This document shows, piece by piece, positions 1 through 4,477 of a stretch of 64,000 nucleotides of DNA; the stretch's first letter is position 1; each line of letters begins with the position of its first letter. The DNA is from Escherichia coli. Lineage in GTDB: Bacteria > Pseudomonadota > Gammaproteobacteria > Enterobacterales > Enterobacteriaceae. A program made the position numbers and the translations under genes. The stretch is taken from the NCBI RefSeq assembly GCF_016903815.1, contig NZ_CP069973.1. One strand, written 5' to 3'. Below the pieces are notes generated by a model, which saw only the letters and a list, made by a program, of their open reading frames with translations, had not been told where the DNA came from and did not search any database.

Positions 1-284
1 CAGATCATATCCATATGCTTGTGGAGATCCCGCCCAAAATGAGCGTATCCGGGTTTATGGGATATCTGAAAGGGAAAAGCAGTCTGATGCTTTACGAGCA
101 GTTTGGTGATTTGAAATTCAAATACAGGAACAGGGAGTTCTGGTGCAGAGGGTACTACGTCGATACAGTGGGTAAGAACACGGCGAAGATACAGGATTAC
201 ATAAAGCACCAGCTTGAAGAGGATAAAATGGGAGAGCAGTTATCGATTCCCTATCCGGGCAGCCCGTTTACGGGCCGTAAGTAA
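1..284 (+). CDS. tnpA: IS200/IS605-family (Y1/HUH) transposase TnpA, C-terminal fragment; gene runs off the window start
   Basis: ORF 15..284 translation (…YLKGKSSLMLYEQFGDLKFKYRNREFWCRGYYVDTVGKNTAKIQDYIKHQLEED…) matches the conserved C-terminal half of IS200 TnpA as recalled; stop codon at 282..284. Confidence 0.8.
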   Translation, partial: DHIHMLVEIPPKMSVSGFMGYLKGKSSLMLYEQFGDLKFKYRNREFWCRGYYVDTVGKNTAKIQDYIKHQLEEDKMGEQLSIPYPGSPFTGRK

Positions 285-400
285 CGAAGTTGGATGCAAA
301 TGTCAGATCGTGTGCGCCTGTTAGGGCGCGGCTGGTAAGAGAGCCTTATAGGCGCATTTGAAAAACCTCCGGCTATGCCGGAGGATATTTATTTCTTACT
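1..400 (+). mobile_element. IS200-like insertion sequence, right-hand part; right boundary approximate
   Basis: tnpA fragment followed by hairpins at 314..329 (gcgcc-tgttag-ggcgc) and 366..384 (cctccggc-tat-gccggagg) then a T-rich tract; IS200-family ends carry subterminal hairpins. Exact terminus not determinable without a reference copy. Confidence 0.5.
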
Positions 401-553
401 AAAAACGACACTTAACAAGTACCAGGTATAAAATATGCCTTATGGCCGAGCGGAAGTGTTTTCCGTATCCATAAATACAAAAGTATTTTGTATGCGTGGT
501 TTTAAATTTATTGATGGTGAATATTAATATTTTTTCTAGGGACAACTAAAAGA

Positions 554-943
554 ATGGAATCATACTCGCAAAACAGCAATAAATTAGATTTTCAGCACGA
601 GGCCAGGATATTAAACGGTATATGGCTCATTACCGCTTTGGGTATGGTGGCAACCGCAGGGCTGGTCCTGGTGATCATCATGAATGCCGCATTAATGAGT
701 GAACGACCCGTTTGGGTAATAAGTTGCTTAATGATAGTGTTATGGTCAGGCATTATCTCGCATGGACGAAATAAGCTCCTTGAACTGGCAGGAAAATGCC
801 ATAGCGAAGAGTTGTGGAGTCCGGTTCGTTGCGCTTTTACAGGTGCATTAACACTCTATTACTATTTTATCGGCTTCTTTGGGATACTTGCCGCTATAGC
901 TATAACGCTTGTCTGGCAAAGGCATACGCGTTTTTTTCATTAG
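554..943 (+). CDS. hypothetical small membrane protein (129 aa, about 3 predicted TM helices); AT-rich, probably accessory
   Basis: Intact ORF with hydrophobic stretches (LITALGMVATAGLVLVIIM, VISCLMIVLWSGII, LTLYYYFIGFFGILAAIAITLVW); AT-rich upstream region 421..553; no recognised homolog. Confidence 0.45.
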   Translation: MESYSQNSNKLDFQHEARILNGIWLITALGMVATAGLVLVIIMNAALMSERPVWVISCLMIVLWSGIISHGRNKLLELAGKCHSEELWSPVRCAFTGALTLYYYFIGFFGILAAIAITLVWQRHTRFFH

Positions 944-978
944 TCGTAAATGCACATACTAAAGAACTTAACTAAACT

Positions 979-1935
979 TCACATCGCCGCTTCATTTTTC
1001 GCTCGTAGCTTCTTCGCCTGGCTTTCCAGTAGCAGGTAACAGATCAGCGCCAGCAGCAGCGGGATAAAGTAATACAGGACGCGATAAGCGAGCAGGGCGG
1101 CGATAATGCTCCCTTTCGAGGTATGCTCCCCAGCCAGTAGCGCGATAAATACCGCTTCCAGCACACCAATCCCCGCCGGAATATGCACGATGACGCCAGC
1201 AATACTACTAACCAGTAACACGCCCAGTACAAAGAAATAGTTCACGCTTTGACCAAGTAACAGCCAGATAATCGCCCCCATTACCATCCAGTTAACGCTG
1301 GAAATCAGCATCTGGGCGAGGGCAAATTTCCATGAAGGCAGCACCAGCTTTTGTCCTTTGATGGTCATATGGCGGTGCTTCGCGAAAGCGCAAAACCACA
1401 AATAAACCGCGATAATCATCAATAAGCCAATGCCGAGAATACGCAGCGTGGTTTGATCGACATACCAGTGATCCGGCAACTCCACCACGCCTGCGGTAAA
1501 GATAATCCCTGCCAGTAAAATATAGCCCAGCCAGTTGGTGGTAATACTGAGCGAGAAAATCCGCGTAATAGTGCTGCCCGGTAACCCTAGCCGGGAGTAC
1601 AAACGATAGCGCATACCAATGCCGCCGACCCAGGTACTGAGCGTCAGGTTGAAGGCGTAGCAGATAAACGACACCAGCATCACCTGGCGCTTCGCCAGTT
1701 TGTGACCGCAGTAAAAGCGGGCGAGCAGATCATAGCAGCCGTAAATCAGATAACTGACGACCACCAGCCCGACCGCACTGAGCAACGCAACGCGATTGTA
1801 GTCGCGGATGACCTTCCAGACCTCTTCCCAGTCCACCTTTTTGGCGTAGACCACCAGCAACACTATCACCGCGATAAAAAACAGCCAGGTGAGGATCTTC
1901 TTTGCTAAGCGCCAGCGTGGGTGTGATTTACTCAT
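979..1935 (-). CDS. ybhN: inner membrane protein YbhN (UPF0104 family)
   Basis: 318-aa polytopic membrane ORF directly upstream of and overlapping clsB, as in K-12. Confidence 0.85.
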   Translation of the reverse strand: MSKSHPRWRLAKKILTWLFFIAVIVLLVVYAKKVDWEEVWKVIRDYNRVALLSAVGLVVVSYLIYGCYDLLARFYCGHKLAKRQVMLVSFICYAFNLTLSTWVGGIGMRYRLYSRLGLPGSTITRIFSLSITTNWLGYILLAGIIFTAGVVELPDHWYVDQTTLRILGIGLLMIIAVYLWFCAFAKHRHMTIKGQKLVLPSWKFALAQMLISSVNWMVMGAIIWLLLGQSVNYFFVLGVLLVSSIAGVIVHIPAGIGVLEAVFIALLAGEHTSKGSIIAALLAYRVLYYFIPLLLALICYLLLESQAKKLRAKNEAAM

Positions 1936-4066: not shown

Positions 4067-4477
4067 ATGAAGTGGCAACAACGTGTTCGTGTCGCAACGG
4101 GTCTAAGTTGCTGGCAGATTATGTTGCATTTACTGGTAGTGGCGCTGCTGGTGGTGGGCTGGATGAGTAAGACTCTGGTTCACGTCGGCGTGGGATTATG
4201 CGCACTGTATTGTGTCACGGTAGTGATGATGCTGGTGTTTCAGCGCCACCCCGAGCAACGCTGGCGTGAGGTGGCAGACGTGCTGGAAGAGCTGACTACG
4301 ACCTGGTATTTTGGCGCAGCGCTGATTGTGCTGTGGCTGTTGTCCCGCGTACTGGAAAACAACTTTTTGCTGGCGATTGCAGGGCTGGCAATCCTTGCCG
4401 GCCCGGCGGTGGTGTCTTTGCTGGCGAAAGATAAGAAGTTACATCACCTTACGTCTAAACATCGCGTACGCCGCTGA
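4067..4477 (+). CDS. ybhQ: inner membrane protein YbhQ
   Basis: 136-aa hydrophobic ORF divergent from ybhP; 3' end overlaps ybhR 3' end. Confidence 0.8.

Follow-up and report, generated by a model that had tools for sequence, protein, structure and literature searches.

An IS200C insertion beside a 324-bp deletion allele of ybhM at a conserved locus of ST405-type Escherichia coli

Insertion sequences of the IS200 group are moved as single-stranded DNA by a Y1 HUH transposase, via subterminal hairpins. The published IS200 has a length of 707 bp, a bidirectional terminator hairpin at its left end (nt 12–34) and a stem-loop in the 5'UTR (PMC4513863). IS200C is a catalogued element of this group, within the IS200/IS605 family, and PGAP uses its ISfinder name in genome annotation. 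The chromosomal side of the comparison is provided by E. coli K-12, in which the genes are arranged in the order moaABCDE - ybhL - ybhM - ybhN - clsB - ybhP. There ybhM (b0787) codes for a Bax1-I/YccA inner-membrane protein of 237 amino acids that matches the Bax1-I profile (PF01027) over positions 3–205 of 207, with 75 bits. A constitutive sigma-70 promoter, ACGACA-16-TATAAA, has been assigned to ybhM by genomic SELEX, together with an H-NS mark (Shimada et al. 2014, PMC3946193). Our search of the literature on ybhM found no paper describing a deletion allele, and a PDB sequence search with the full-length YbhM gave no match at E ≤ 0.01.

We have analyzed the beginning of a window of 64,000 nucleotides from E. 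coli (RefSeq assembly GCF_016903815.1, contig NZ_CP069973.1), in which the sequence-only reading had placed an IS200 remnant and an orphan membrane-protein gene, possibly marking a strain-specific island. With a probability of about 0.88, what is found here are two unrelated and ordinary events at adjoining positions of a conserved core-genome locus of ST405-type E. coli, i.e., the insertion of IS200C and a deletion within ybhM. The first 1000 bases of the window were 100% identical to at least 30 RefSeq E. coli chromosomes (megablast against 5426 complete E. coli genomes) and had a best match of at least 99% in 243 records. The arrangement IS200C-ybhM-ybhN, counted when at least 80% of this 1000-base query was covered, was present in 96 of the 5426 genomes. 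One of the strains with a 100% match, WCHEC96200 (NZ_CP022229.3), has been described as ST405, phylogroup D (PMC5762679). Strain 7/2 showed no difference from the window over the 5000 bases compared (window 1–1000 corresponds to L001:4001–5000), and its gene order is moaABCDE - ybhL - tnpA(IS200C) - 129-aa ORF - ybhN - clsB - ybhP - ybhQ. The comparison of this order with that of K-12 indicates that the locus is core genome with two local differences. From the end of the element onwards, bases 395–978 keep the order of the K-12 sequence, with about 95% identity, and clsB follows ybhN, both on the minus strand. The proposed island is replaced by core-genome synteny from base 395 on. The statement that neither feature fits the K-12 neighborhood of ybhN, where ybhM would be expected, holds in so far as the locus does differ from K-12; however, the ORF itself is ybhM. 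The coordinates of the features are collected in Table 1.

Table 1. Features at the start of the window, with the strand and the evidence for each of them.
Feature	Position in the window	Strand	Evidence
IS200C, 3' part (nt 319–712)	1..394	+	Identity to strain 7/2, filled and empty site, other copies
tnpA, C-terminal 93 codons and stop	3..284	+	Pfam PF01797, translation, PGAP annotation
IS200C right end	308..394	+	Imperfect subterminal hairpin 308–361, perfect 8-bp hairpin, ATATTTATTT tail
ybhL-ybhM intergenic spacer, native	395..553	+	Colinear with K-12, GC content
ybhM allele, 129 aa, in-frame 324-bp deletion	554..943	+	DNA alignment and BLASTP against K-12 ybhM, Pfam, hydropathy
Deletion junction, single CAGG	657..660	+	K-12 has two CAGG 324 bp apart (L003:3897–3900 and 4221–4224)
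ybhN, conserved downstream neighbor	979..1935	-	ORF list, annotation of matching loci

The 129-aa ORF had been described as an orphan with no recognizable homolog, a description that cannot be kept, since apart from the deletion it is colinear with K-12 ybhM. Both have the same start and the same stop, with about 95% nucleotide identity over the 390 bp retained and one gap of exactly 324 bp, and codons 37–144 of the 237 (108 codons) are missing from the allele of the window. The BLAST comparison of the ORF that had been proposed as a check also returned ybhM: residues 31–129 correspond to residues 139–237 of K-12 YbhM (92% identity over 99 residues), and residues 1–37 to the first 37 of K-12 with one substitution (L31M). 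The three transmembrane helices that had been predicted are there, as three hydrophobic segments in the Kyte-Doolittle profile (residues about 19–45, 51–71 and 97–123). According to the hydropathy profile, the first half of TM1 now continues directly into the second half of TM5; TM2–TM4 are gone and TM6–TM7 are kept. The match of the ORF to the Bax1-I profile covers positions 129–205 of 207 only, with 34.5 bits for a cutoff of 34.1, and the product does not have the complete seven-helix domain. Judged by its sequence, the ORF is no intact member of the Bax1-I family but the allele or remnant of one. RefSeq lists this 129-aa product as WP_001522650.1, under the name ‘hypothetical protein’ in some records and ‘Bax inhibitor 1 family protein’ in others. 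In K-12 the two breakpoints read GCAACCG-CAGG-ACTAGCCTGG and ACGTTGA-CAGG-GTTGGCCCTGG, i.e., they have a 4-bp CAGG microhomology in common, with further but imperfect similarity on the 3' side. The 324 bp may have been lost in frame between the two CAGG copies by replication slippage or by microhomology-mediated recombination.

On the other side of the spacer, the transposase had been recognized correctly. The ORF 15..284 (+) gives the C-terminal 89 aa of an IS200-type TnpA from an internal ATG, although no stop interrupts the frame from base 3 onwards, and matches Y1_Tnp (PF01797) with E=4e-21 over positions 51–121 of 121. The HUH motif DHIHMLV (at 9–17) and the region of the catalytic Tyr, RGYYVDTVG, can both be read in the translation. 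The word remnant does not apply: the source genomes have the whole element, of which nt 319 is the first base of the window. The 318 nt of IS200C that precede lie upstream, and it is the window edge alone that cuts it. When the locus is extended upstream in strain 7/2, as the sequence-only reading had advised, a complete IS200C of 712 bp with its left end is found (L001:3683–4394), containing an intact tnpA of 152 aa whose product is WP_000526135.1 (PGAP name ‘IS200/IS605-like element IS200C family transposase’). It has a single ORF and subterminal hairpins, without terminal inverted repeats. The left-end hairpin is formed by AACCCCCAGC/GCTGGGGGTT. The hairpins noticed after tnpA are also real features of the right end: the imperfect one is followed by a perfect 8-bp stem at 366–384 and then by ATATTTATTT (385–394), and the minimum free energy of bases 280–400 was −47.1 kcal/mol (z = −4.3), with none of 200 shuffled sequences folding as well. 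In a terminator scan, the right-end hairpin plus ATATTTATTT was scored as terminator-like on either strand. An Rfam scan of window 1–1200 at E ≤ 1 gave no match; the art200/5'UTR region of IS200 lies upstream of the window.

The ends of the element are defined by its other copies. With the whole element plus flanks as query, matches were found at 15,295 places in 5008 genomes, and the homology ended at the same two ends. Five copies at unrelated sites have a left end that reads (T)GTGCACAGAAAACCCCCAGC... and a right end that reads ...CCTCCGGCTATGCCGGAGGATATTTATT(T), with flanks that differ from one another, and the right end is common to six copies up to ...ATATTTATT(T), where the similarity stops. 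Owing to the T's on either side of the insertion, the position of these ends has a margin of up to 3 nt. There are about 20 copies of IS200C per ST405 genome. On sequence grounds the element is the known IS200C, and the same copies at this site are already annotated in RefSeq. A shortened ybhM next to a characterized element with defined ends is precisely the outcome that the sequence-only reading had named as speaking against itself.

The comparison of filled and empty sites gives a clean gain of 712 bp between GGGATTTTTTT and CTTACT, without target duplication and with a run of T's as the sole ambiguity. The empty site is the same in K-12 and in two carriers of the deletion allele that have no IS (118UI and Ecol_545). 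The insertion point lies where the T-tract of the intrinsic ybhL terminator ends, and IS200C is co-oriented with ybhL. The complete element of ~712 bp thus occupies a site between ybhL and ybhM. Upstream of it, the terminator of ybhL has kept its hairpin and all 7 T's. Downstream, the ybhM promoter starts 11 bp past the right end and is also intact, with ACGACA-16-TATAAA kept at 405–432 as in K-12; a consensus scan finds the same ACGACA −35 hexamer. The native spacer was rightly seen as an AT-rich stretch, with 31.4% GC at 395–553 vs. 51.7% for the window, and differs from the ybhL-ybhM spacer of K-12 by a handful of substitutions. Since the terminator of ybhL and the promoter of ybhM are both intact and the element carries a terminator at its left end, we infer that the insertion has been nearly neutral for its two neighbors, with little predicted effect on ybhL or ybhM.

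The position behind a terminator is not peculiar to this copy. All six IS200C copies examined are located directly 3' of a GC-rich host hairpin followed by a T-run (dG −11.6 to −17.4 kcal/mol), as seen in the 40 nt 5' of their left ends (L001:3643–3682, L014:47–86, L015:48–87, L016:66–105, L017:66–105 and L018:46–85). These hairpins follow the co-oriented genes ybhL, uspE, carB, uhpT, pqqU and one unnamed hypothetical gene. Terminators have been reported to be enriched upstream of IS200/IS605 elements (preprint, bioRxiv 10.1101/2025.07.22.666184). In line with that report, the six copies suggest that IS200C targets intrinsic terminators.

The ybhM deletion allele is an ordinary within-species polymorphism. 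The comparison of the ybhM-ybhN junction among E. coli genomes, another of the checks that had been proposed, identified the 60-bp sequence spanning the deletion in 464 of 5426 complete genomes (8.6%), nearly all at 100%, 98.3% or 95% identity. The query was kept at 60 bp and E ≤ 1e-10, where half-matches fall below the threshold; longer queries could not tell short from long alleles, as pieces within 500 bp were joined. The segment that this allele lacks was found in 4809 of the 5426 genomes; JJ1886, a B2 strain, has it at 91.5% identity. The ybhM region as a whole was matched in 5404 genomes, and the difference from the 4809 with the 324-bp segment plus the 464 with the junction leaves about 130 genomes that lack the segment in some other way (other deletions or disruptions, e.g., H69 and H70). 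In six junction carriers outside the IS group ybhL is found directly before the short ORF, with no IS. These six, together with the 464 genomes with the junction vs. only 96 with the IS, indicate that the deletion preceded the IS insertion and had no connection with it; IS200C arrived later, confined to a subset of the deletion-carrying genomes. The substitution L31M (A at nt 91) was found in all seven deletion alleles compared and in none of five full-length alleles, and its presence along with an identical junction points to a single origin of the deletion. We also considered the deletion as a marker of the whole of phylogroup D, and discarded it because in E. coli 042, taken as a reference for phylogroup D, ybhM is of full length and is interrupted by an internal stop.

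With these data, two other accounts of the ORF lose nearly all of their ground. That it might be an orphan gene, or cargo that came with IS200 and marks an island specific to the strain, could be argued from its position adjoining the IS, from its low GC (44% in the ORF and 31% upstream) and from the label ‘hypothetical protein’ that PGAP gives to it in many genomes. However, the element ends at position 394 of the window, an end found in six independent copies, none of which reaches the ORF, while the sequence that follows is colinear with K-12. Besides, most of the 464 carriers of the ORF have no IS there at all, and the GC content is equally low in the full-length ybhM and the spacer of K-12. 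We regard this account as practically discarded; of the two origins that had been offered for the ORF, cargo or fragment of a larger disrupted gene, it is the fragment that stands, in the form of a shortened ybhM. The opposite polarity, by which the short ybhM would be ancestral and the 237-aa form of K-12 would have arisen by insertion or duplication of 324 bp, is just as improbable. The long form spans the whole Bax1-I profile and the short form only its last third, which argues that the long form is intact and that the short one is derived. Moreover, the long form is the one found in 4809 of the 5426 genomes, divergent lineages at 91% identity among them, and the short alleles share one derived substitution and one junction.

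A further question is whether the shortened protein still does something. Among the alleles compared (window 554–943 and its counterparts L004–L009:1427–1816), the ORF was intact in six of the seven deletion carriers sampled, with Q14* in O158:H23 (L008) as the exception. One could suppose that the 129-aa product is a functional and selected three-helix derivative of the Bax1-I family, for instance one that modulates FtsH or proteins of the YbhL/YccA type, or that a protein made of the TM1/5 hybrid plus TM6–TM7 is expressed, is kept by selection and has its own role, e.g., as a small modulator of proteins of the Bax1-I/YccA type or as their dominant-negative partner. The exact loss of 108 codons keeps the reading frame, the number of helix equivalents removed is even and the topology of TM6–TM7 could persist, the promoter is conserved, and the allele has reached 464 genomes in at least three sequence classes. 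Some pairs of deletion alleles also have a pairwise pN/pS as low as 0.03–0.06. We have not taken this value as evidence of selection, because the synonymous differences are grouped towards the 3' end, in a block that other allele classes also have and that looks imported by recombination, so that these ratios would mostly reflect variation that already existed. The preserved frame also carries little weight, as one in three random deletions stays in frame. Within the deletion clade there are about five non-synonymous to five synonymous changes, and the amino-acid changes that followed the deletion are all clustered in residues 36–44, in the TM1/TM5 hybrid helix: G36E, A38V (in the allele of the window), V40M and N44D. 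A nonsense allele exists, and the full-length gene has itself been damaged in other lineages (it is annotated as a pseudogene with an internal stop in strain 042, and the matches to ybhM are partial or absent in other genomes), which argues that it is dispensable. The confounded pN/pS, the share of non-synonymous changes (about one half), the nonsense allele and the damage to ybhM elsewhere favor decay over a maintained mini-protein. The product is probably not a working channel but a crippled leftover of a paralogue that is dispensable and is being lost; both functional proposals, the selected derivative and the expressed hybrid partner, appear unlikely.

Other variants were found at the same locus. 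E. coli 20KM2228 has a third Bax1-I paralogue between ybhL and ybhM (L013:694–1398, 234 aa, PF01027 E=2e-12), and the ybhM of strains with this third paralogue has a different N-terminus, MNSRSANNITND... The presence of this additional gene in some strains makes the locus a variable tandem array of Bax1-I genes. In strain 042 (L020:9350–12045) an insert of ~2 kb separates ybhM from ybhN and contains four small genes, coding for a DUF3969 protein, a hypothetical protein, a SUKH-4 family immunity protein and another hypothetical protein; it looks like an orphan immunity-gene islet.

Both components of the locus, IS200C and ybhM, are already known. What the analysis provides is the removal of a false lead to an orphan gene and an island, and a correction to annotation, as the label ‘hypothetical protein’ of WP_001522650.1 and its relatives should read truncated ybhM allele. 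It also gives two lineage markers, one being the junction of the 324-bp deletion in ybhM (464/5426) and the other IS200C behind the terminator of ybhL (96 genomes, ST405 strains among them), and adds a small amount of support for the landing of IS200-group elements directly behind intrinsic terminators.

Compared with the systems described, the anatomy of this copy of IS200C agrees with that of the published IS200 (PMC4513863). The copy in the window does not differ substantively from the catalogued IS200C, and only its insertion site, the ybhL terminator, is lineage-specific (96 of 5426 genomes). YbhM is in the same Pfam family as YbhL and YccA, the canonical Bax1-I paralogues of E. coli, and ybhL lies directly upstream; however, YbhL reaches 212 bits against the family profile vs. 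75 for the full-length YbhM, which indicates that YbhM is already a divergent paralogue and a weak member of the family at its full length. In the translations, the C-terminal ‘LYLDFINLF’ of YbhL corresponds to ‘LYYYFIGFF’ in YbhM, so that an acidic residue at this position, which we take to be conserved in the Bax1-I family, is absent from YbhM. With respect to the ybhM of K-12, the allele of the window occupies the same locus, with the same promoter region, start and stop, but codes for three hydrophobic helices instead of seven, without TM2–TM4 and without parts of TM1 and TM5.
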